DNA of 32,000 bases from Halalkalibacterium halodurans (GCF_004376175.1 NZ_SNUY01000039.1:7092-39091); one strand, 5' to 3'. Numbered from the stretch's first letter, positions 8,124 to 27,995 are shown. The notes: a model not told the origin generated them from the sequence alone. Program-made: numbers and translations.

Positions 8124-8759
8124 TTATAAAGGATAATGCTTTAAAAAATAAATGAGCGCCTGCAATTCAACCGATAAGTCAATATGGTGAACACGAACGT
8201 GCTCTGGCACCGCAATTCTTGCTGGTGTAAAGTTCAAAATCCCTTTCACTCCAGCGTTTACGAGACGGTCTGCTGTTTTTTGGGCAACCGCAGCAGGCAC
8301 TGTTAAGATCGCCACCGATACGTCTGACGTTATTTTGTTCTCTAAATTGTCAAGATTTTCGATTTTTACACCACTAACAGTATTCCCTATTTTTTCCCGA
8401 TCTACATCAAACGCCATGACAATTTGCGTATGATTGTTTTTTGAAAAGTTATAGTTTAACAAGGCGGTCCCTAGATTCCCTACACCGATGAGCATGACCT
8501 TCGTCAGTTCATCCTGATGAAGCGTCTTTCGAAAAAAGGTTAGCAAATAATTGACGTTATAGCCGTATCCTTTTTTTCCGAGTGCACCAAAATAGGAGAA
8601 GTCACGCCGAATCGTCGCTGAATCCACCTTGACTGCTTCACTTAGCTCAGATGAGGAGACCCGTTGTTTTCCTGAAGCGTGCAAATTTTCAAGAAAGCGA
8701 TAGTATAACGGTAAACGTTTAGCCGTTGCTTGTGGAATTTTCGTTGGTTCGTTGTTCAT
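8124..8759 (-). CDS. rex: redox-sensing transcriptional repressor Rex
   Basis: [16 protein letters not shown] winged-helix N-terminus and GVGNLG Rossmann NADH-binding motif. Same position as in the B. subtilis rex-tatAy-tatCy locus. Confidence 0.95.
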
Positions 8760-10894: not shown

Positions 10895-13051
10895 TTACAT
10901 CTCTTTTCCTTCGCTCATCATTTTCCCATTTTGCATTTGGGCAAGCAGCCAATAATAGTTCGTGGACACGATGAAAAACATGGAGGTTGCAGCCGCTACT
11001 ACCCCTGAATCGTTTAACAACAATAGGGCTACTGAAGCAACAATGCCCCCTTTTAAGAACAACGATTGACCAGCGTCATATTTTTTGGCACTTTGCGTCC
11101 AGATCAGAACACCGAGAAGAAGGTAGCTCGTCACAAAAAGCTGTGTCCAGTTTGAATAGCGAAAAATCGTCATGTTCATGGCTACCTTTCGTTTCATTGT
11201 TTGAAGGACGTACTGGATATCTCCAGAAAGCAGCCGCTCATACGCGTCACCTATATGTGTAGACGGGCTATTCATTTGTAAAACAAACAGTAACAAAAGG
11301 GTGATGAGAAGTGCGCCCCCACTCACAATGACTAAATTCCACTTTGACAGCTGTTTTCCAATGAGCGTATAACCGACAAAGGCACACGCAATCCCCGCCG
11401 ACAGCGTAGCTCCAGCATTCGCTCCAAACTGACTCATTCCGAGCATCATGAGTGTAAATCCGCTCACCACAAACACAATCACTAGCCGTTTCCACAGCTC
11501 TGTTTGCCAAACAGCTCCTGTGATGAGAAGAACAGCTGCAGCTATGTACAATCCGGCAAATTCATTGCCAATCCCATAATAACGGGCCCCTATGATCGGA
11601 TCATAGCCAAGATACGAAGTGGCAATGAACGGGCCACCGTTCATTAAATCTATGCTGATCGCAGCAAATAAAAGAAATCCTAAAAGCCAGATCGGTTGTG
11701 CGCTTAGTTGTGTCGCCGTCCACCCCAAAATAAGGGAACATCCAATAACCGTGAGCACGAAGAGATATGGGCCAACTTCGTGCACGAATGGCGTCAATAC
11801 TAATAGCCAAAGTGGCGTACTAACGGCCGAAGCAAGAATCATTTTCATCCCTAATCGCCAGCGTGGGTTCCCTTTTTTTACCCAACTTCCGATGCTCGCC
11901 ACAAGAAGCATGACGACAAGCATTGTAATATAGCTAGATAAGACCGCCCCACGTGTACGAAAAATCGTAAATCGCTTATTCACTTCAGAGACAATTGCCT
12001 CTTTATCGTTTTCTACACTATCTACTTGAAACAGAAGGGGCCTCCCTGTCATTTGTGGGTCCGGACTAATATGAAAGTACGATAGGATCGTTGGCGCCAC
12101 GTCAACATTGGCAAGTACATCAGACCTGCGAGTAGAAGCAGAATACGGACTACCTTTAAAGCCGCTGCCCCAAAAATAAGTGGGGGCTAAACGCTTCTTT
12201 TGCTTATACGCCTCATCGTGCATGATCGGGGCAAGAAGCCATACATCAGAGGCAGAGCCTGTCGTCACGTTGTGAATAAATGTCTCTAGACGATAGAGCT
12301 CCTTAGCCCGCTTCTCTGCAAAAATAGCTGATGGCATGTTCTTTTTCTGATCAAATAATCGGTACAGATCCCCCCACTCAATTACAGTGAATGCTTTCGA
12401 ATCGGTTTGGTCACGCAGCTTTGAGAGCAGTGCCTCTTCGTTCATCGCCATTCCGTGCGGTGCACTCATTAGGGCTCGTACCGTTCCTTGTAGATCACCG
12501 GTAGCCCTTCCTTGACCATCCATGACAAACAAAGATCCGTAACGATGTGGTTCTGTTGCCGTATCGCTATGTCCAAAAACGTTCATTGTCACATCGTGTT
12601 GCTTTAGTAACGTTCCGAGTCGACCAACGAGATGGCCTTGAGCATTTTTTTTAACCAATTGAGGGAGGTAAGGATGAGAAAGCTGGCTTTCTTGCTTTTG
12701 ACTAAGCCACTGTTGCATGATGGCTTCCACCGGTTGTCCTAATACGAGCTCCCCTCGTTCAAACGCATTCCAATCACTTACCCCTTCTCCTCTCGCTCCA
12801 AGACTCAATGTCACTGTACTATTTAGGTAAGAGTACGGACCATCGGATCGAATATTCATCGCCGCCAAGTGTCCCGTTTCCCACATATCTGAATGCTGCC
12901 CATGTTCTAACAACCACTCTACTTCATCAAAAGAAAGGGATGGAACGAGAAGAAGAATCAGATTGCTTGTTTCATGTTCAAAGGCTTCAGCTAGCGACGA
13001 ACACCCTAAAATTAACATTGATGCTAATAAACACGAATAAAACCATTTCAT
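10895..13051 (-). CDS. hypothetical membrane protein: signal/lipobox, about 360-aa extracytoplasmic domain, then about 10-11 TMS
   Basis: 718-aa ORF. N-terminus MKWFYSCLLASMLILGCSS (lipobox-like ILGC). The ectodomain ends in VLANVDVAPTILSYFHI, which resembles the C-terminal signature of alkaline-phosphatase-superfamily enzymes. The C-terminal half is polytopic. Confidence 0.8.
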   Translation of the reverse strand: MKWFYSCLLASMLILGCSSLAEAFEHETSNLILLLVPSLSFDEVEWLLEHGQHSDMWETGHLAAMNIRSDGPYSYLNSTVTLSLGARGEGVSDWNAFERGELVLGQPVEAIMQQWLSQKQESQLSHPYLPQLVKKNAQGHLVGRLGTLLKQHDVTMNVFGHSDTATEPHRYGSLFVMDGQGRATGDLQGTVRALMSAPHGMAMNEEALLSKLRDQTDSKAFTVIEWGDLYRLFDQKKNMPSAIFAEKRAKELYRLETFIHNVTTGSASDVWLLAPIMHDEAYKQKKRLAPTYFWGSGFKGSPYSASTRRSDVLANVDVAPTILSYFHISPDPQMTGRPLLFQVDSVENDKEAIVSEVNKRFTIFRTRGAVLSSYITMLVVMLLVASIGSWVKKGNPRWRLGMKMILASAVSTPLWLLVLTPFVHEVGPYLFVLTVIGCSLILGWTATQLSAQPIWLLGFLLFAAISIDLMNGGPFIATSYLGYDPIIGARYYGIGNEFAGLYIAAAVLLITGAVWQTELWKRLVIVFVVSGFTLMMLGMSQFGANAGATLSAGIACAFVGYTLIGKQLSKWNLVIVSGGALLITLLLLFVLQMNSPSTHIGDAYERLLSGDIQYVLQTMKRKVAMNMTIFRYSNWTQLFVTSYLLLGVLIWTQSAKKYDAGQSLFLKGGIVASVALLLLNDSGVVAAATSMFFIVSTNYYWLLAQMQNGKMMSEGKEM

Positions 13052-15551: not shown

Positions 15552-16005
15552 GATCCAATAACTCCTTTAATACCTCTTCCCAGCGCTCTCCGTAGGCTGT
15601 AAATGAAAGCTGGCGTTCGTTTTCCCCTGCATGAGTAATCGTAATCGCTAAGCGAACAGGAGGCAGCCGCCCTTCAATCAAGCTGGCCCATTCCACGACC
15701 GTCACTCCATCCCCGTGGAAATATTCATCAAATCCAAGGTCCTCTTCCTCTTCATTTAATCGATAAACATCCATATGATAGAGGGGTAATCGTCCTTTGT
15801 ATTCACGAATAATTGTAAACGTCGGGCTCTTGACGACACGTTTTATGCCTAAGCCAAGAGCAAGTCCTTTTGTAAAGCTTGTTTTCCCTGCACCCAAATC
15901 TCCTTCTAGTGTAATCACATCTCCGGCAAGAAGCTTGTCTGCTAGCTTTTGCGCAAATGCCATTGTAGCCTCAGGCGACTGGGTTATCATCATCAACCGT
16001 TTCAT
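15532..16005 (-). CDS. tsaE: tRNA t6A biosynthesis ATPase TsaE
   Basis: P-loop GDLGAGKTSFTKG and SPTFTI motif. 20-nt overlap with tsaB. Confidence 0.93.
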   Translation of the reverse strand: MKRLMMITQSPEATMAFAQKLADKLLAGDVITLEGDLGAGKTSFTKGLALGLGIKRVVKSPTFTIIREYKGRLPLYHMDVYRLNEEEEDLGFDEYFHGDGVTVVEWASLIEGRLPPVRLAITITHAGENERQLSFTAYGERWEEVLKELLDHEDVSD

Positions 16006-17163: not shown

Positions 17164-17237
<74 letters not shown>

Positions 17238-17355
17238 TCGTTATAAAGTAAATGGATGTTGTTGTTCCTAAGGTCGCTTTCTCGGCAGATGCTTCGCTCG
17301 TTGCTCCACCCTGCGTCCTAATGATGTTGTTTCTATAATGGATGCAGTTAAAGCT

Positions 17356-17471
17356 GCTTGGCAACGTCCTACTCTCGCAGGGGCAAGGCCCCAACTACCA
17401 TCGGCGCTGAAGAGCTTAACGACCGTGTTCGGCATGGGAACGGGTGTGGCCTCTTCGCTATCGCCACCAAA
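17356..17471 (-). rRNA. rrf: orphan 5S rRNA gene (no adjacent 23S/16S)
   Basis: 116 nt, differing at 3 positions from the operon 5S at 27753-27868. Begins TTTGGTGGCGATAGC and ends GCCAAGC. Confidence 0.93.
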
Positions 17472-19981: not shown

Positions 19982-21488
19982 TTAATCCATATTCACCCAA
20001 ACACTTTTCACTTCAGTATAATTTTCTAATGCATAGCTCCCCATTTCCCGGCCAATCCCCGATTGTTTGTAACCACCAAACGGGCTCGCGGCATCGAATA
20101 CATTGTAGCAATTCACCCAAATGGTCCCTGCCTTGATTCGGTGGGCAATGTAGTGTGCTTTTTTAATATCCTGTGTCCAAACACCAGCAGCTAGTCCATA
20201 ATCAGAATCGTTGGCTTTATCAATTAGGTCGTCTATGCTATCAAACGGCATTGCGGCTACAACTGGACCAAAAATTTCCTCCTTGGCGATCGTCATGGAA
20301 TGATCCACGTCAGCAAAAATGGTTGGGGCGACAAAATACCCTTGATCATACGGAATGTTCCCACCTGTTAGTAGTTCTGCCCCTTCCTCAACCCCACGAT
20401 CGATGTAATTTTTCACTCGACTTTGTTGTTGATTTGAAATCAGAGGTCCCATGGTCGTTTGTTCTAATAATCCATCCCCTTGCTGAATCTCATTCGTTAA
20501 CGACACCAGGTCAGCAACGACATGATCATACTGTTTCTTTTGTACATATAAACGACTTCCTGCGCAACACACTTGGCCTTGATTGAACATAATGCCCATA
20601 AGTGAGCCAGGAACGGCCTTTGACAAATCAGCATCAGGTAAAATGATATTTGGTGACTTGCCCCCAAGTTCAAGCGTTACTCTTTTTAATGATTCACTCG
20701 CTTGTTTCATAATTAACTTTCCGACATCAGTCGACCCTGTAAAAGCCACTTTATCTACAGCTGGGTGATTCACAAGGGGAGCTCCAGCCGAATGCCCAAA
20801 TCCAGGGACAATGTTCACAACCCCTTTTGGAAAACCTGCTTCATTGATCAATTCTCCTAAATATAAGGCGGAAAGTGGAGTCTGCTCTGCCGGTTTTAAC
20901 ACAACCGTACAACCTGTAGCTAGAGCGGCACCAAGTTTCCAAGCAGCCATCAATAACGGGAAATTCCAAGGAATGATTTGGCCTACAACGCCAATGGCTT
21001 CATGGCGCGTGTAGTTAAAATAATGGCCTTGTACAGGGATGGTTTGGCCCACAATTTTTGTCGCCCATCCTGCAAAGTAACGAAAGTGTTCAATTACTAA
21101 TGGAATATCAGCATTGGCCGTCTCACGAATTGGCTTACCATTATCTAACGTCTCAAGCTGAGCTAACGCTTCTTTATGATCCTCAATCAAATCAGCCAGC
21201 TTGTATATGAGTCGACTTCTTTCCGCTGCACTCATTTTAGACCAAGGCCCTTCATCGAACGCTTTCCTTGCCGCTTTCACTGCAAAATCGATGTCCTCTG
21301 ACCCAGCTTCTGCTACGAGAGCTAATGTTTCTCCGGTTGCTGGATTCATCGTTTCAAAAGATTGTCCAGAGAATGAATCAACCCATTCCCCATTAATAAA
21401 TAGCTTCTTTGGTCCACCGTTTAAAAACGCCACTAACCTTGGATTTAATTTGCTATCGTTTGTTGAGATTTTTTGCATTCTTTTTTCC
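19982..21488 (-). CDS. NAD(P)+-dependent aldehyde dehydrogenase
   Basis: ALDH family motifs FTGSTDVGK, catalytic ELGGKSP and QVCCAGSR (catalytic Cys). ATG 21488 lies 7 nt after AAGGGGGA and 16 nt after the adh stop. Confidence 0.95.
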
Positions 21489-21504
21489 CCCTTATTCAAT
21501 CGTT

Positions 21505-22545
21505 TTAAGCCATTGTTAATACAACACGGCCGTTAATTTTTCCGTTTGCCATTCTTTCAAACACGTCATTGATTTTATCTAGCGGTTGAACTTCAATGTT
21601 AGTTCGCACTTTTCCTTGGGCCGCAAATTCGATTGATTCTTGCAAATCCTTTCGCGTACCTACAATTGAGCCTTTCACCGTTACCCCGTTCAATACTGTA
21701 TCGAAAATCGGAATTGGTAATTCATCATTTGGAAGACCGACCACTACCAATGTCCCTCCTCTTTTAACAGATCCGTAAGCTTGTTCAAATGCTTTTTTCG
21801 TTACTGCTACACTAATGGCCGCTTGAACTCCACCCACTTTTTCTTTAATTTCTTGAACAGGATCTACTTCCAATCCATTTACTGTTAAATCTGCTCCAAG
21901 ACTTTTTGCTAACTCTAATTTATCCTCCATAATATCTACGGCAATGACGTTATAACCCATCGCTTTTGCATACTGTAGAGCAACGTGACCTAGTCCACCG
22001 ATTCCATAAATGGCGACCCAGTCCCCTGCTTTGGCTTCTGCTACTTTCAGTGCCTTATAAGTCGTCACCCCTGCGCAAAAAATGGGTGATACTTCGGCAA
22101 AATCAAGATGCTCTGGAATTTTTACTACATAGTTTGCAGGAGCCTTACAATATTCTGCATATCCCCCATCCACTGAATATCCAGCATTTAATTGGTCTGG
22201 GCATAACGTCTCCCGGCCTGTCAAACAATACTCACACTCTCCACACGCAGAATAAAGCCACGGAATACCGACCCGATCCCCTACCTTTATTGAAGTTACC
22301 CCTTCTCCTATTTCCTTTACAATGCCTACCCCTTCATGACCAGGGATAAGTGGAAGCTTAGGCTTTACAGGCCAATCTCCATGAGCGGCATGCAAGTCTG
22401 TATGACAAACACCGCAAGCCTTAATTTTGACAAGCACCTCTCCATACTCCAATGAAGGTACCGGAACTTCCTTAATCTCTAATTGCTGTTTGAACTTATC
22501 CACGACCGCCGCTTTCATCATTCTTCGTTCGGTTATTTCACCCAT
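21505..22545 (-). CDS. adhA: zinc-dependent alcohol dehydrogenase (AdhA/propanol-preferring type)
   Basis: GVCHTDLH and GHEGVG catalytic-zinc motifs, structural-zinc Cys cluster CGECEYC, GIGGLG Rossmann motif. An alternative start at MKAAVV (22518) is possible. Confidence 0.95.
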
Positions 22546-22585
22546 GTAAAATCTCTCCCCTCATTTTGGTTTCACTACTTAAACA

Positions 22586-22601
22586 AGCAAGAATCGTGCC
22601 A
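22586..22601 (-). promoter_or_regulatory. sigma-54 (-24/-12) promoter upstream of adh-aldH
   Basis: Minus strand TGGCACGATTCTTGCT matches TGGCAC-N5-TTGC(A/T) with correct GG/GC spacing. It lies about 40 nt upstream of the adh start and directly downstream of a GAFTGA activator gene. Confidence 0.85.
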
Positions 22602-22719
22602 ACAAAAAAGCGCTTTCATCATGTGAGTTCCCTTCCTTGCGGCCAAAAAATCGGCTCTTTACGGCCGTATTCTTGGACAAAACATGACAACTTTTCGCGA
22701 AATCGGTAAACACGGGTTT

Positions 22720-22755
22720 AAAAATAAAAAAAGAACCCTTTTCATAAAGAGCTCT
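22720..22755 (-). terminator. rho-independent terminator after the response-regulator gene
   Basis: Minus strand AGAGCUCUUU-AUGA-AAAGGGUUCU (10 bp including two G:U pairs), followed by UUUUUUUAUUUUU. Confidence 0.8.
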
Positions 22756-22762
22756 CTACTCG

Positions 22763-24214
22763 CTATTCTGTATTCACTTTTTCATTTAAAAGATATCGGA
22801 GCTTTCTCGTCGAAATTTGCAACCGTTTTGCGGCTGCTTTTCGGTTGCCATGGGTAGCTTCTAACGTTTGTAAAATGAGAGCTTTGCCGAGTTGTGACTC
22901 TAACTGTTTAACTTGGGCAAGAACCTCTTCTAAATCAATCTCTTCTTTTTGTGAATAAAAACATAAAGCTTCATCCATCCATTTTTCAATATGCTCGTCC
23001 ATGCCCTCTCCCAGTGTTTCGGAACGACTGCTAGCTGTTAGCTTTTTAGAGGTGACCGAACGTTGACCTGTAAACGGAAGATGATCAGCAGTGATTTTCA
23101 CATGACCGGAATCAGCTAACGTAACGATCCTAGTAATGCAGTTTGATAATTCTCGGATATTCCCTGGCCATTCATAGCTTTGCATCGTTTTTACGGCGTC
23201 ATCCGAAAACGTGATTTCGATACTTGGATATCGTTTCAAAAAGTGTTCTATTAAGAGTGGGATGTCCTCTTTTCTCTCTCGAAGCGGCGGAATTTGTAAA
23301 TGGACGACGTTTAACCGGTAAAATAGATCTTCTCTAAATTTTTTCTGCTGCACCGCTTCTTGAAGATCTTCGTTCGTTGCCGCAAGCAGACGGGTATTTG
23401 TTCGAAATATTCGTTCTCCTCCTACACGCATAAACTCTCGTGTTTCAAGTACACGTAAGAGTTTCACTTGAATTGAAGTTGAGGCTTCCGCTATTTCATC
23501 AAGAAACAGCGTCCCCTTGCTGGCAATTTCAAAAAGGCCTTTCCGCATTTGTGTTGCCCCTGTAAAGGCTCCTTTTTCGTGACCAAAAAGCTCACTCTCC
23601 AATAAAGATTCGGATAGTGCTCCACAGTTTACCCCAATAAACGATTCGTAACTCCTTTGACTTGCCTGATGGATAAACCGTGCCAACACTTCCTTTCCCG
23701 TCCCTGTTTCCCCCTCAATTAACACATTTACATTTTTGCCTGCTACTTTATAAGCCGTTTGAATTAACTGTCTCATGGTCTCATTCTGTCCCACAATGAG
23801 CCCTACATTTATAGCCAAATCGAGAATGCGTTGCTCGTTGGAGGTTACATTGGAAATGAGCAAGTCGTCCACTTGGGCCTCTAACAAGTCAATATCATCA
23901 AATGGCTTCTCTATGTAATCACTTGCCCCTAACTTCATCGCCTCGACGGCTGTTTTTATTGTGCTGTAACCTGTCATGATAATCACTTTACAATGGGGTT
24001 GTCTCCTTTTCAAATGCTTGAGTAACACAATTCCATTAGCATCAGGTAATTTTAGGTCGATCATCGCAGCATGAAATGGCTGGTGGCTAAAGTCAATTTC
24101 ATTGAATTCCTTTCCACTATTTACAACAGTCACATTGTATCCCTTTGACATGAAGAGATGGGAAAGAAAGTTACCTACTTCTACTTCATCGTCAATGATT
24201 AATATGCTTGTCAT
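22763..24214 (-). CDS. sigma-54-dependent response regulator (REC, AAA+, Fis-type HTH; NtrC family)
   Basis: REC domain with IDLKLPD phospho-acceptor context. Walker A GETGTGKE, the sigma-54 contact loop GAFTGA, and C-terminal HTH AAKRLQISTRKLRYLL. Confidence 0.95.
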   Translation of the reverse strand: MTSILIIDDEVEVGNFLSHLFMSKGYNVTVVNSGKEFNEIDFSHQPFHAAMIDLKLPDANGIVLLKHLKRRQPHCKVIIMTGYSTIKTAVEAMKLGASDYIEKPFDDIDLLEAQVDDLLISNVTSNEQRILDLAINVGLIVGQNETMRQLIQTAYKVAGKNVNVLIEGETGTGKEVLARFIHQASQRSYESFIGVNCGALSESLLESELFGHEKGAFTGATQMRKGLFEIASKGTLFLDEIAEASTSIQVKLLRVLETREFMRVGGERIFRTNTRLLAATNEDLQEAVQQKKFREDLFYRLNVVHLQIPPLRERKEDIPLLIEHFLKRYPSIEITFSDDAVKTMQSYEWPGNIRELSNCITRIVTLADSGHVKITADHLPFTGQRSVTSKKLTASSRSETLGEGMDEHIEKWMDEALCFYSQKEEIDLEEVLAQVKQLESQLGKALILQTLEATHGNRKAAAKRLQISTRKLRYLLNEKVNTE

Positions 24215-25719
24215 ACCGCCCCTCCAATCTTGGTGCTAGCTGCTGGCAACCTTAAGATAAAGGTACTCCCTTTTTTAAGTTTGCTGTGAACATCAATTGT
24301 TCCGCCGTGCGATTTGGCGATACCAATACTGACAGATAACCCTAATCCTGTCCCTTCTTTGGATGATTTTGTTGTATGAAAAGGGTGAAAGATTTCTGCC
24401 AATCGTTCTTCCTCAATTCCGATTCCGTTATCTGTCACTGATAGATGAACTTCATTGTACTGAAACCACGTCTTAATGAGGACTTCCTTTTTGTCACTTA
24501 GGGCTTCTTCTAGTGCATCTTTCGCATTCAATAATAAATTAATAATAATTTGTTCAATCTGCGCTTGGTTACCTTCAATCAACGGGATATCTTCTTGTAG
24601 ATCTGTTTTGATCACAACTTCTTCTTTTTGTAATTGATACTTTAATAGGTTCAATGTTTCATTTACAGCATCATTAATTGCACAAGCCTTAAACACAAAT
24701 TCTTCCTGTCTCGAAAAGGTAAGTAGGCTATTAATGATTCGTTTGCAGCGATTACCACAATTTTTTATATCCGTTAAAAGTGGGAACAACGGGTCATGAT
24801 CTTTCACATCTCTAAGAATCAGTTGAGAATTCCCCAAAATAGCAGTTAACGGGCTGTTAAGTTCGTGGGCCACTCCTGCTGCCATTTCACCTATAGCCGC
24901 CAGTTTTCCAGAATGGATAAGTTGTACCTCCATTTTACGCTTTTCCGTGACATCCTTAATATAAGCAATAACCCCATAAATCACCTGTTCGTTATTGACA
25001 AGTGGGTACGTAGAAAGTTCGCAAATAATTTGATTGCGAAAATGAATTTCTTCATGTCCAGCTTTTTGTGATTTGAATGTTTCCTTCACAAGGGGTTCAC
25101 AGTGTTCGGCCAGTAAGGAAATCTTAGTTAATTTAGTACTCTGAAGAAAATGCTGGACAGCATCATTGAATTGAATCACGTTTCCTTTTTGATCAAAGAC
25201 TATGATCATATCATCTACTGCTTTAAATGTATCTTCCCACTCTTGTTTAGACCGTAAGACTTGGCCATATAATTCCACATTTTCGATACTAACTGCTAAA
25301 TGATCGGTAAGTTGCTCTAAAAACGCAAGATCATCCAAACTCCAATCTATCTGTTGTTTTCGGCCGATACTCAGGACACCTATCCTCTTGTTTTTACTAT
25401 AAATTGGTATCACCAAAATGGACTTTAGATCAAGAATAGCTAAATATTGTTTCTCGTAGAAATTATCTTGCGTATCTGTCAGACTTCGAAGAATGGTTTG
25501 TCTTTGATCTAATGTTGACCAATATAGAGACTGTTCTTTTGGAATGGTTGAACCAATATCGAGGGAATAGCTGCCTTTAGGATACACATGACTTAACTTC
25601 AAAGTCTCATTCGCTAGCAATAAAAAACTAATACGATCAAAGTGAACGAGCAGTTTTAGTTTATCGATCATGTTATTTATAATATCATCAAGTGACATAT
25701 CGATCTTAATGCTTTTCAT
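24211..25719 (-). CDS. cytoplasmic sensor histidine kinase (GAF, PAS, HisKA, HATPase_c); N-terminus apparently frameshifted
   Basis: H-box HELNSPLTAILG, N-box LLLNAKDAL, G-boxes DNGIGI and GTGLGLS. No TMS. ATGA overlap with the regulator gene. The ATG at 25719 has no RBS; see the fragment at 25737-25856. Confidence 0.9.
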   Translation of the reverse strand: MKSIKIDMSLDDIINNMIDKLKLLVHFDRISFLLLANETLKLSHVYPKGSYSLDIGSTIPKEQSLYWSTLDQRQTILRSLTDTQDNFYEKQYLAILDLKSILVIPIYSKNKRIGVLSIGRKQQIDWSLDDLAFLEQLTDHLAVSIENVELYGQVLRSKQEWEDTFKAVDDMIIVFDQKGNVIQFNDAVQHFLQSTKLTKISLLAEHCEPLVKETFKSQKAGHEEIHFRNQIICELSTYPLVNNEQVIYGVIAYIKDVTEKRKMEVQLIHSGKLAAIGEMAAGVAHELNSPLTAILGNSQLILRDVKDHDPLFPLLTDIKNCGNRCKRIINSLLTFSRQEEFVFKACAINDAVNETLNLLKYQLQKEEVVIKTDLQEDIPLIEGNQAQIEQIIINLLLNAKDALEEALSDKKEVLIKTWFQYNEVHLSVTDNGIGIEEERLAEIFHPFHTTKSSKEGTGLGLSVSIGIAKSHGGTIDVHSKLKKGSTFILRLPAASTKIGGAV

Positions 25720-25736
25720 TACTTCATTTATAATCT

Positions 25737-25856
25737 CTAATTGAATATTTTTTTTTTCAGTTGTTCGACTGTTTTCTTTAATTCTGTATAGTATGTTTTT
25801 TTCGATGAATCAACGCCTGTTAAGCGAGCAATCATTTTCTGTTTATCTTCCAACAT
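25737..25856 (-). pseudogene. detached 5' segment of the histidine kinase gene (39 codons), out of frame because of an A10 tract
   Basis: ATG 25856 lies 6 nt after AGGTGGTGA. It encodes MLEDKQKMIARLTGVDSSKKTYYTELKKTVEQLKKK. One extra A in the run at 25748-25757 would continue NIQLEIINEVMKSIKID into the kinase ORF. Confidence 0.7.
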
Positions 25857-25868
25857 TATTGTCACCAC

Positions 25869-27017
25869 CTATAAAACATTTTTTAATACTTGCTTTACTT
25901 GCTCAACATTCATGTCACGAGGATTCGTAATCATACATGCATCTTCTAACGCTACTTGGCTAATGTGATGAATCATTTCTTCTGTTATCCCTACCTCTCT
26001 AAATCTTGTGGGAATACCGATATCAAAGGACAGCTCTTTGACAAAATGGATTGCAGCATTTCCTGCTTCCCGTTCCGTCAATCCCCTTGTATCAATTCCT
26101 AAACATGTCGCTATGTCTAAAAATCGCTTAGGTGTTGCGATAAAATTAAAATCCATGACATAAGGGAGAAGAATAGCGTTTATTTCTCCATGCGGTAAGG
26201 GAAACTTCCCTCCAATCGCATGGGATATTGCATGCGCTGCCCCTAAAATGGCATTTGAGAAAGCAAGTCCTGCTTGTAAGCTAGCCATTGCCATCGCTTC
26301 CTTTGCCTCTGTATTCGTTTTGGAAGCAACAGAGGGTCGCAAGTATTGAGCACACAAGATGAGGGCATTTTTGGCCTGGACATCTGTAAGCGGGGTGGCC
26401 GCAATACTGACATACGCTTCGATGGCATGTGTCAGCACATCCATCCCCGTTGTAGCGGTTAGGCTACTGTCTTTCGTCACGAGTGTGTAAGGATCAATAA
26501 TGGCAATATCGGGAACCAATGTTTTTGATACAATGGTCATTTTCTTTTTTCGATTCGAATCAACTATGATTGAAAATTGCGATACTTCAGAACCGGATCC
26601 TGCAGTTGTCATAATCATAATCATTGGAGGAAGGGGTTTTTTTATTTTATCGATTCCTTCTTAATCACTAATAGCTCCACCGTTCGTTGCAAGGATGGCG
26701 ATCGCTTTCGCTACATCTAACACACTTCCTCCTCCAACCCCAATAATGGCATCACATTCATGTTGCACAAACACTTGACACCCTTGTTCAACCTCGCGAT
26801 CTTTCGGGTCTGTCGTCACACCGACAAACGTGGCAAATGGTAGATGTGACTCTTTACAAAGTTCTATTACTTTTTCTAACCATCCGGCATTTGCGACGCC
26901 CCTATCACTAACAATCAACACTTTTTTCGCACCAAGTCGAACACAAGCGTCCCCTGCTTGCCTTATTGCATGACCCCCGAAAATAATCTCTGGTGTTACA
27001 AATTTATTGATATTCAT
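25869..27017 (-). pseudogene. iron-containing (group III) alcohol dehydrogenase interrupted by one in-frame TAA
   Basis: The ORFs 26661-27017 (GGGSVLDVAKAIA motif) and 25869-26624 (TTAGSGSEV and the histidine-rich metal site) are in the same frame. They are joined by ...AISD-TAA-EGIDKIKKPLPPM... Confidence 0.85.
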
Positions 27018-27044
27018 TCCAATCTCCTTATGGAAAGTTGATTA

Positions 27045-27097
27045 ATTATAAACTTATCGATGCCGGTCTTAAATTCCTGCTTGATTGTGAGGAATTT
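27045..27097 (-). promoter_or_regulatory. candidate promoter region with an 8-bp inverted repeat upstream of the Fe-ADH gene
   Basis: Minus strand TATAAT at 27045-27050 with a weak -35. A perfect inverted repeat AAATTCCT-N11-AGGAATTT at 27071-27097 overlaps the -35 position. Confidence 0.35.
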
Positions 27098-27165
27098 AGA
27101 TGGTGATATTTTCCTATAAAAAATACCTCTAACAGCAAGAGTCCATTGAGACATTCCTCTTCCTC

Positions 27166-27326
27166 CGTCGTCTCTCTTGTCGTTTACGAAGAGAATGGGA
27201 TCGTCTCGCAGGGGGCATGATGCTTTTCTTTGTCGCCTTTTTCATGGTGTGACCCTCGGCTTTCCTTCGATGACTCTGCTCCTTCGGACCAACGCTCTTC
27301 AGCGCCTTTTCTACTTCAGATGACCG
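27166..27326 (-). repeat. rrn-trailer repeat module Y' (paralog of 27546-27716)
   Basis: By eye, mostly identical to module Y, with several substitutions and small indels. Purine-rich on the minus strand. Confidence 0.8.
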
Positions 27327-27432
27327 GCGAGCTTTTTTGTCAGCTACGCTCGTTCCCTCCTGTCACGTATGTTGATATACGCTCAGTCCGTCTCTCCCTT
27401 GCTTCCGCAAATCTCTTGGTCCTCCTTGTAGA
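27308..27432 (-). repeat. repeat module X' (paralog of the 23S-5S spacer segment 27871-27995)
   Basis: Near-identical to module X by eye, with scattered substitutions. Contiguous with Y' and has no 5S gene between them. Confidence 0.85.
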
Positions 27433-27454
27433 AACAATTTTACTTTTTGACACC

Positions 27455-27487
27455 TAAAAAAGCACAACCCGATTGGATTGTGCTTTA
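27455..27487 (-). terminator. duplicate copy (T2) of the 5S terminator
   Basis: Same hairpin as T1: AAAGCACAA-TCCAATCGGG-TTGTGCTTT plus TTTTTT on the minus strand. Confidence 0.8.
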
Positions 27488-27489
27488 TC

Positions 27490-27504
27490 GCTTGGCAGCG
27501 TCCT
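27490..27504 (-). pseudogene. 15-nt remnant of the 5S rRNA 3' end
   Basis: GCTTGGCAGCGTCCT is identical to 27753-27767 and is followed by unrelated sequence. Confidence 0.75.
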
Positions 27505-27545
27505 TGGGCTCCCCCTTTCTCTCCTACGGGGGTCTTTTACCACGC

Positions 27546-27716
27546 CGTTTCCCTCTGTCGTTTCTCACGATGTTTACGCAGAGAATGGGGTCGTCTCACA
27601 GGGGGGACATGACGCTTTTCTTTGTCGTCTTTTCATGTTGTATCCCTCGGCTTTTCAGTGATGACTCTGCTCCTTCGGATCAACGCTCTTCAGCGCCTTT
27701 TCTACTTCAGATGACA
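27546..27716 (-). repeat. rrn-trailer repeat module Y
   Basis: Paralog of 27166-27326, lying directly downstream of terminator T1. Confidence 0.8.
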
Positions 27717-27717
27717 C

Positions 27718-27750
27718 TAAAAAAGCACAACCCGATTGGATTGTGCTTTA
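27718..27750 (-). terminator. rho-independent terminator (T1) of the rrn operon
   Basis: Begins 3 nt after the 5S 3' end. 9-bp stem AAAGCACAA/TTGTGCTTT followed by a T6 run. Confidence 0.85.
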
Positions 27751-27752
27751 TC

Positions 27753-27868
27753 GCTTGGCAGCGTCCTACTCTCGCAGGGGGAAGCCCCCAACTACCATCG
27801 GCGCTGAAGAGCTTAACGACCGTGTTCGGCATGGGAACGGGTGTGGCCTCTTCGCTATCGCCACCAAA
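27753..27868 (-). rRNA. rrf: 5S rRNA (rrn operon copy)
   Basis: 116 nt, TTTGGTGGCGATAGCGAAGAGG...GACGCTGCCAAGC. Strong resemblance to Bacillus 5S. Confidence 0.95.
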
Positions 27869-27870
27869 CC

Positions 27871-27995
27871 TTTCTACGTCAGATGATCGGCGAGCTTTTT
27901 TGTCAGCTACGCTTGTTCCTTCCTGTCACGTATGTTGATATACGCTCAGTTCGTCACTCGCTTGCTTCCGCAAATCTCTTGATCCTCTTTGTAGA
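27871..27995 (-). repeat. repeat module X within the 23S-5S spacer
   Basis: Paralog of 27308-27432. A shorter related core also occurs in the 16S-23S spacer near 31173-31230. Confidence 0.8.

Follow-up and report, generated by a model that had tools for sequence, protein, structure and literature searches.

We analysed a 32,000-nucleotide stretch of DNA from Halalkalibacterium halodurans (GCF_004376175.1 NZ_SNUY01000039.1:7092-39091; hereafter the window) and found a cassette that probably encodes a two-operon alcohol-responsive circuit. An iron-type alcohol dehydrogenase (Fe-ADH), a sensor histidine kinase and an NtrC-family regulator form a triad that would switch on a zinc-type alcohol dehydrogenase (Zn-ADH) and an aldehyde dehydrogenase (ALDH) from a sigma-54 promoter. 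The regulatory wiring appears to be real and is well supported by comparison with related loci. Synteny and analogy with described systems suggest that the triad is the sensor module (enzyme, kinase and activator) and that Zn-ADH, with or without ALDH, is its output. An earlier reading of the bare sequence by a model (the original prediction) had placed a GAF-PAS kinase and an NtrC-type activator next to a sigma-54 promoter ahead of adh-aldH. This arrangement stands and is conserved, but the circuit may not be intact in this particular strain.

Organization of the cassette

The cassette occupies the minus strand and follows an rRNA operon (16S, 23S, 5S) on its downstream side. Its regulator protein is 99% identical to one from H. 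halodurans, and the DNA of the cassette is about 99.6-99.7% identical to that of five other H. halodurans assemblies, so that the window represents a separate strain. Pfam searches of the window proteins and sequence scans recovered every gene and signal listed in the original prediction, all on that strand. The first operon opens with an ErcA-like Fe-ADH gene (25869-27017), whose Pfam Fe-ADH and ADH_Fe_C domains fall on two pieces separated by an in-frame TAA. A candidate sigma-A promoter for the operon (TTAAGA-16-TATAAT, 27045-27072) precedes it, identified only as a consensus match at 10 of 12 positions. The kinase gene follows, also in two pieces: a 39-codon open reading frame (ORF) for the N-terminal helix, recognized by translation and orthologue alignment and lying out of frame (25737-25856; BH0535 in strain C-125), and a main ORF of 502 residues (24211-25719; BH0536 in C-125). 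The main ORF overlaps the gene of the sigma-54 enhancer-binding response regulator (22763-24214; NP_241403 in C-125) by 4 nt at 24211-24214, which is the ATGA coupling that had been predicted. The regulator operon ends in a terminator-like hairpin with a T-run (22730-22757) that has an equivalent in Shouchella; this terminator was expected to be strong, but the hairpin is modest (-12.5 kcal/mol, z = -1.9).

The second operon consists of an AdhP-type Zn-ADH (21505-22545; Pfam ADH_N and ADH_zinc_N) and a non-acylating ALDH of 498 residues (19982-21478; Pfam Aldedh, 633 bits) that depends on nicotinamide adenine dinucleotide (NAD). The Zn-ADH scores 428.5 bits on the NCBIfam AdhP equivalog NF006940, above the cutoff of 344, which makes it a member of that family, and it matches the structures 1RJW and 3PII of thermostable Geobacillus ADHs with 575 bits. 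Structural relatives of the ALDH in the PDB are 5GTK, 4QF6 and ALDH2. Between the Zn-ADH stop and the ALDH ATG (21478, with GGGGAG in front) we measured 26 nt instead of the 16 nt given previously.

Conservation across species

We examined the corresponding loci of H. halodurans, Shouchella clausii, Priestia, Peribacillus and Anoxybacillus, together with those of 80 further species (GTDB representatives) collected by a scan with the kinase alignment; these were the best 80 of 197 stretches encoding a relative. One of the scan patterns spans the frameshift site described below, so that frameshifted H. halodurans and S. clausii representatives are under-represented among the 80 (L011-L090); both species are covered by the separately obtained loci. 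Mapping by tblastn revealed that Fe-ADH, kinase and regulator are co-directional in 89 of 90 loci, that is, in all that span the triad (the remaining one, L004, starts inside the kinase). The gap between Fe-ADH and kinase was 12-20 nt where inspected.

A Zn-ADH of 72-95% identity adjoins the triad in most loci, and its position is variable. Most genera have it downstream of the regulator in convergent orientation. In Halalkalibacterium, Shouchella, Metabacillus litoralis and Halobacillus it is co-directional, and Ectobacillus, Aeribacillus, Lysinibacillus and Ureibacillus have it upstream of the triad. In six loci the Zn-ADH is replaced by a second, different Fe-ADH of about 45% identity, which an ALDH accompanies in four cases. 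Not every locus has an ALDH; two types occur, and DUF779 follows one of them. In the distant species (L079-L090), identity was 60-69% for the Fe-ADH, 44-50% for the kinase and 49-56% for the regulator. The association of kinase, regulator and adh, for which a gene-neighbourhood check had been proposed, is thus kept in about 80 species irrespective of gene orientation, together with a helically phased activator site.

Sigma-54 promoter and activator sites

An exact -24/-12 element, TGGCAC-N5-TTGCT (TGGCACgattcTTGCT, 22586-22601), lies 56 nt before the Zn-ADH ATG. It is the sole exact match within the 32 kb, where 0.03 would be expected; the original prediction had called it near-consensus. Scanning the loci with the pattern TGGYAY-N5-YTGCN placed such an element ahead of the Zn-ADH in 80 loci, at a distance of 42-150 nt. 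All six loci with a substitute Fe-ADH have one in front of that gene, and in two loci one precedes a separately placed ALDH-DUF779. No -24/-12 element was found ahead of the Fe-ADH/kinase/regulator triad in the window or in any scanned locus. The element tracks the target gene through rearrangements and therefore provides good phylogenetic-footprint evidence. Its assignment as a sigma-54 promoter follows from its placement, its conservation in these 80 + 6 loci and the presence of rpoN in C-125, from which we extrapolate within the species to the strain of the window.

The orthologous promoters share a palindrome, GCCGA-N4-TCGGC, which is exact in 30 of 79 non-redundant sequences and has at most one mismatch in 55; only 36 exact copies occur in 1.6 Mb of locus DNA. 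The main site of the window, GCCGAttttTTGGC (22642-22655), has one mismatch and is centred 47 nt upstream of the -24 TGG. Distances between main site and TGG among the orthologous promoters group at 47-49, 58-60, 68 and 78-82 nt. These steps of about 10-11 bp, or one helical turn, are as expected from a face-of-helix constraint on an activator contacting sigma-54. In an information profile anchored on the main site, a second conserved block starts 21 bp upstream of it. The half-conserved GTCCA-N5-ACGGC found there in the window (22664-22678), about 21-22 bp upstream of the main site, may tentatively be taken as a weaker activator site.

Between the activator site and the -24 element of the window lies an element, ATGAAAGCGCTTTTT (22605-22619), that resembles a catabolite-responsive element (cre). 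The cre-like pattern TGWAARCGYT is present in 15 of the 79 promoters, the window included, with a background of 0.01 per 200 nt; it sits 16-18 nt upstream of TGG in 14 promoters and 32 nt upstream in one. Judged by the published cre consensus, it is a candidate CcpA site and suggests catabolite repression of the sigma-54 promoter.

The window strain has one T more in the T-run adjoining the cre-like element (22609), and a C/T change affects position 22641, immediately beyond the enhancer palindrome. In two Ectobacillus loci (L021 and L022, around 15595-15764), ALDH-DUF779 has its own -24/-12 promoter besides that of the Zn-ADH, which implies that the regulon can hold two sigma-54 transcription units.

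The regulator and the sigma-54 factor

Profile searches, which had been suggested for both signalling proteins, assigned GAF, PAS_9, HisKA and HATPase_c domains to the kinase. For the regulator they returned Response_reg (88 bits), Sigma54_activat (231 bits), AAA_lid_14 and HTH_8 (33 bits). The receiver signature DD...D...T...K (D8/D9, D53, T81 and K103) is conserved in 83 orthologues, and the GETGTGKE Walker A, GAFTGA and FLDE motifs are invariant in the same set. A receiver domain with its switch residues, an AAA+ domain with GAFTGA and a Fis-type helix-turn-helix place the protein among the NtrC-family enhancer-binding proteins. The closest NCBIfam models are AtoS for the kinase (238.6 bits against a cutoff of 646) and AtoC for the regulator (403.3 against 714), so that neither protein belongs to these equivalogs; their database names are generic.

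We checked whether sigma-54 is available in this species. Strain C-125 encodes sigma-54 (NP_244430.1) and nine enhancer-binding proteins, among which NP_241403.1, the regulator described here, was listed as a GAFTGA protein with no function assigned (Francke et al. 2011). The presence of rpoN, on which the original prediction depended, is thereby confirmed for C-125. The RpoN-box had no match in any of the locus DNA examined around the cassette.

The kinase N-terminus and lesions in the putative sensor genes

The 502-residue kinase ORF lacks the conserved N-terminus of its family. This N-terminus is encoded by the 39-codon ORF, MLEDKQKMIARLTGVDSSKKTYYTELKKTVEQLKKK, which is preceded by a good Shine-Dalgarno sequence (GGTGGTGA) and is off by -1 at a run of ten A residues (A10; 25748-25757, T10 on the plus strand) at the KKKN codons. 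The frame is lost at CTG-A10-TATTC. With one A more, or after a -1 shift, translation would continue as ...KKKNIQLEIINEVMKSIKI into the kinase ORF and give 548 residues, with the junction peptide …EQLKKKNIQLEIINEVMK spanning KKKNIQLE. The corresponding motif, LTGVxSSKKxYYTELKxxVxxLKKKNxQLEIxN, belongs to the best-conserved segments of the family. An AlphaFold2 model of a 70%-identical orthologue (P0162; mean predicted local distance difference test score 78) consists of a short helix, a loop and a long helix (19-49), followed by GAF (56-172), a linker helix, PAS (216-301), the dimerization and histidine phosphotransfer (DHp) domain and the catalytic and ATP-binding domain. In this numbering the frameshift falls in the middle of helix 19-49, and a restart at Met47 would remove the helix. 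The prediction of a cytoplasmic kinase is compatible with the lack of a membrane-domain match and of a transmembrane segment in this model, and on these two observations we take the kinase to be putatively soluble. The kinase has the H-box AHELNSPL. We further noticed a conserved Cys-Gly-x-Arg-Cys in the second DHp helix, at residues ~366-370 (window ~24750-24770), with C366 kept in at least 97% and C370 in at least 80% of 82 orthologues; this pair could be a thiol-based redox or aldehyde-reactive element.

The A10 tract is the sole homopolymer of at least nine in the window. In other genera, where the site was readable, the Lys codons are interrupted (e.g. AAAAAGAAAAAT) and the kinase is in frame. 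An A11 tract is found in one H. halodurans assembly (L001), in S. tritolerans and in P0122, and the 548-residue form occurs on 10 contigs. The A10 tract, which gives 39 + 502 residues, is shared by the window, C-125, S. clausii KSM-K16, S. rhizosphaerae and more than 60 S. clausii contigs, and A9 alleles are implied by 43-residue peptides ending in YSIRDYK or HSIRDHK. Some of these tract-length calls may be homopolymer sequencing errors; the Sanger genomes of C-125 and KSM-K16 are both A10. A sequencing error as the origin of the kinase split was rejected, given its presence in these two reference genomes and in the >60 S. clausii contigs.

The 39-codon ORF differs between H. halodurans and S. 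clausii by six synonymous and three nonsynonymous codons. The synonymous changes are spread over the whole ORF and the nonsynonymous ones are all in the first seven codons, which argues that the orphan ORF is still under purifying selection. The junction has the marks of recoding, with a slippery homopolymer between two frames that form one protein in relatives and an A10 common to different species. It also has those of a contingency locus, in which tract-length polymorphism among close isolates toggles the reading frame. The tract pattern fits phase variation, rescue of A10 by slippage or -1 frameshifting, and recurrent inactivation alike, and it represents a separate case of possible phase variation or recoding in a regulatory gene.

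The Fe-ADH gene is also affected. Its domains identify the family as predicted, but it is not a single ORF: an in-frame TAA (26661-26663) at codon Tyr119 ('AISD*EGIDK') splits it into 118 and 251 residues, which makes it a nonsense pseudogene in this strain. Tyr119 lies within a conserved DYEG motif. Four other H. halodurans assemblies have TAT (Tyr) at this codon and an intact 382-residue product, and among the six H. halodurans loci only the window strain carries the nonsense codon. The Zn-ADH of L004 has a 5-bp deletion, corresponding to window positions 22319-22323.

These lesions raise the question of whether the cassette is decaying in the window strain and possibly also in the H. halodurans/S. 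clausii lineage, such that the regulator stays unphosphorylated and adh-aldH is silent or depends on cross-talk or acetyl phosphate. We regard this as quite possible. Three independent lesions among six near-identical H. halodurans loci point in that direction, namely the Fe-ADH TAA in the window, the kinase A10 in five of six, and the Zn-ADH deletion in L004, as do the widespread A9 and A10 alleles. Similar alcohol-regulatory genes are also often lost in laboratory evolution (yiaY in P. putida, DVU2394/2395 in D. vulgaris). On the other hand, purifying selection still acts across genera on the orphan N-terminal ORF, the window has an intact regulator, Zn-ADH and ALDH with all their cis elements, and A11 alleles persist within H. 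halodurans. In addition, transcriptional slippage can be appreciable on a run as long as A10.

The Fe-ADH as a putative co-sensor

The original prediction had treated the Fe-ADH as part of the regulated oxidation operon. This did not hold up: the gene always comes first in the regulator operon, lacks a -24/-12 element and resembles ErcA, and for these reasons it is more likely part of the sensor, a probable co-sensor by analogy. Its best NCBIfam match, over the full length, is ErcA (NF041833) with 474 bits, below the equivalog cutoff of that model. The triad Fe-ADHs of Anoxybacillus, Aneurinibacillus and Sporosarcina score 463-496 bits, and in four genera the ErcA model lies 120-150 bits above the next family. 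The alternative target Fe-ADHs best match the YiaY-type model PRK09860. ErcA is co-cistronic with a sensor kinase, and the Fe-ADH here is likewise directly upstream of the kinase in 89 of 90 loci. Y119, the GGGS motif and the metal ligands are conserved in 83 orthologues; retention of GGGS and metal ligands suggests that the Bacillaceae Fe-ADH is probably catalytically active.

In Pseudomonas, according to secondary sources, ercA/yiaY is co-cistronic with the kinase gene ercS/PP_2683, and both are required for induction of the exa/ped genes by short-chain alcohols. These sources describe ErcA/YiaY as the presumed generator of the kinase signal and AlphaFold3 models with the N-terminal regions of enzyme and kinase in contact. 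Should this also be true here, the concept of an Fe-ADH that generates the signal for a kinase would apply to Gram-positives as well as to Pseudomonas, and in a much simpler three-gene form that should be easier to dissect.

Alternatively, the Fe-ADH could be a third catabolic enzyme that is merely co-transcribed with the regulators, while the GAF and PAS domains of the kinase bind alcohol, aldehyde or a redox cofactor directly, as has been proposed for AdhR of Clostridium. The enzyme retains the residues that bind NAD and metal and is similar to active dehydrogenases of methanol, propanediol and ethanol, it falls short of the ErcA cutoff, and the kinase has two canonical small-molecule sensor domains, the same pair that serves AdhR with no partner enzyme required. 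We nevertheless consider this rather unlikely. The first position of the Fe-ADH is invariant in 89 spanning loci, whereas the targets shift place and type; it has no sigma-54 promoter of its own in any locus; it is better conserved than kinase and regulator in the distant species; and the Pseudomonas precedent requires an ErcA-type enzyme for signalling.

A more specific form of the co-sensor idea would have the Fe-ADH act as an enzymatic co-receptor docked on the strictly conserved N-terminal helix of the kinase, and the A9/A10/A11 tract at mid-helix in Halalkalibacterium/Shouchella as a selected switch (phase variation and/or slippage) setting the amount of signalling-competent kinase. We offer this as speculation and think it unlikely in this combined form. 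If true, co-receptor and A-tract switch would make for a tunable or bistable alcohol regulon in Gram-positives.

Proposed circuit

In the circuit that we favour, the Fe-ADH, soluble kinase and NtrC-type regulator of operon 1 would be expressed at a basal level, probably driven by sigma-A. The Fe-ADH/kinase pair would perceive a short-chain alcohol or its aldehyde. The Fe-ADH may make the actual signal (aldehyde or NADH) by alcohol turnover, or may alter its contact with the kinase upon substrate binding. The kinase would then autophosphorylate and pass the phosphate to the receiver Asp of the regulator. The regulator would oligomerise on the tandem GCCGA-N4-TCGGC sites, which conservation places 47-70 nt upstream, and at the expense of ATP would open the closed complex of sigma-54 at TGGCAC-N5-TTGCT. 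Transcription of operon 2, with Zn-ADH ahead of ALDH, would follow, and its enzymes would convert alcohol to aldehyde and then to acid. Catabolite repression probably comes in addition, through the cre-like site that lies between enhancer and promoter. In the window strain, full-length kinase could arise solely via slippage of RNA polymerase or ribosome at A10. As the Fe-ADH is also truncated there, induction is probably weakened or lost in this strain.

Several points weigh against this circuit. The kinase is out of frame here and in most H. halodurans and S. clausii genomes, and if this is truly a null state, the circuit would be dispensable in those genomes. The Fe-ADH (474 bits) does not reach the ErcA equivalog cutoff of 550 bits, and the alternative target Fe-ADHs score about 435 on the ErcA model too, so that 'ErcA-like' denotes a lean and not membership. 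The enhancer is merely 47 nt from the promoter, nearer than classical NtrC sites. Finally, the direction of enzyme flux could be either oxidation or aldehyde detoxification. Along this line, we find it improbable that the operon is for defence against aldehyde or solvent stress, or for redox balancing, instead of growth on alcohols, with a reactive aldehyde or the NADH/NAD ratio as signal: the broad, ALDH2/betaine-aldehyde type of the non-acylating ALDH, the many loci with ADH alone (a reversible enzyme) and the possibly thiol-reactive C-G-x-R-C pair of the kinase speak for it, while the cre-like site with its suggestion of a catabolic role, the ethanol-active AdhP/ADH-hT type of the Zn-ADH and hosts such as the alcohol users Peribacillus butanolivorans and B. 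methanolicus speak against it, none of these three being decisive.

Provided that the wiring of the two-operon circuit is right, at least about 200 species of Bacillaceae and neighbours share a sigma-54 regulon, with hosts including Geobacillus, Anoxybacillus, Peribacillus, Priestia, Neobacillus and B. methanolicus. The circuit would then explain the induction of the much-used thermostable alcohol dehydrogenases of the ADH-hT type. It would also provide a compact alcohol-responsive promoter/enhancer (GCCGA-N4-TCGGC plus -24/-12) for engineering thermophilic and alkaliphilic hosts.

The surrounding window

The 700 nt that separate the 5S rRNA gene from the Fe-ADH (27239-27995) are made up of incomplete direct duplicates of the 3' flank of rrn. 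Copies of the 23S-5S spacer, the 5S 3' end and the terminator recur there: 27308-27432 matches 27871-27995, and 27454-27504 is identical to 27717-27767. An Rfam scan of 27000-27780 gave no match. In keeping with repeated sequence, the sister assemblies end about 195 nt before the Fe-ADH. An additional, orphan 5S rRNA gene with 97% identity to the first lies with a tRNA about 10.4 kb downstream of the rrn operon (17164-17471 and 27753-27868). Direct 5S repeats thus bracket a block of the adh cassette, mgtC and a Cys/Met pyridoxal phosphate enzyme. In S. clausii, too, the cassette is directly preceded by about 5 kb in which no protein genes are called and which presumably hold an rRNA operon.

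Further away, a 718-residue ORF (10895-13051, minus strand) between an ABC-F ATPase gene and tsaD-rimI-tsaB-tsaE had no Pfam match at E = 0.01. A gene for a Rex-type redox-sensing repressor (8124-8759, minus strand; Put_DNA-bind_N and CoA_binding) lies about 11 kb from the cassette in a conserved tatC-rex neighbourhood, with no evidence of a link to the adh operon.

Comparison with known systems

We found no description in the literature of BH0534-BH0539, of a two-component sigma-54 adh system in Bacillaceae, or of slippage at the A tract. The system may have gone unstudied because B. subtilis lacks it. The novelty claimed in the original prediction is supported as far as described Bacillaceae systems are concerned, but the architecture has precedents in DVU2394, ErcA/ErcS and AdhR. 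EmaSR of Acinetobacter was considered as an analogue and rejected, being a membrane hybrid kinase with a LuxR-type regulator.

The ErcA/ErcS pair of P. aeruginosa and P. putida shares with our cassette an Fe-type ADH upstream of a kinase in one operon, and the Bacillaceae Fe-ADHs best match the ErcA model. ErcS, however, is described as a hybrid kinase feeding the LuxR-type AgmR/ErbR in a multi-tier cascade with periplasmic pyrroloquinoline quinone dehydrogenases as targets. The Bacillaceae system has a plain GAF-PAS kinase, a sigma-54 enhancer-binding protein in the same operon, and cytoplasmic Zn-ADH and ALDH as targets. DVU2394/DVU2395 of Desulfovibrio vulgaris is likewise a sigma-54 two-component system with an adh operon as mapped target. 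Compared by description, it differs in belonging to another phylum, in its adh plus heterodisulfide reductase operon and in its direct-repeat binding site.

AdhR/SigL of Clostridium beijerinckii is closer in phylogeny, being from Firmicutes, and has a sigma-54 promoter at the ADH genes adhA1/adhA2, three upstream sites and GAF + PAS input. AdhR is a one-component protein (GAF-PAS-AAA+-HTH) that controls alcohol synthesis, whereas the Bacillaceae system carries GAF-PAS on a separate kinase, has a receiver-bearing activator and includes an ALDH in its output, which is the oxidative direction. AtoS/AtoC of E. coli resembles it in combining a PAS kinase with an NtrC-type regulator to activate a sigma-54 operon for the catabolism of small carbon compounds, but its effector is acetoacetate, its targets are different and it has no partner enzyme. 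AtoS is also membrane-bound. None of ErcA/ErcS, DVU2394, AdhR and AtoSC joins all the features found here. The cassette is thus apparently an undescribed system, assembled from known kinds of parts and widespread.

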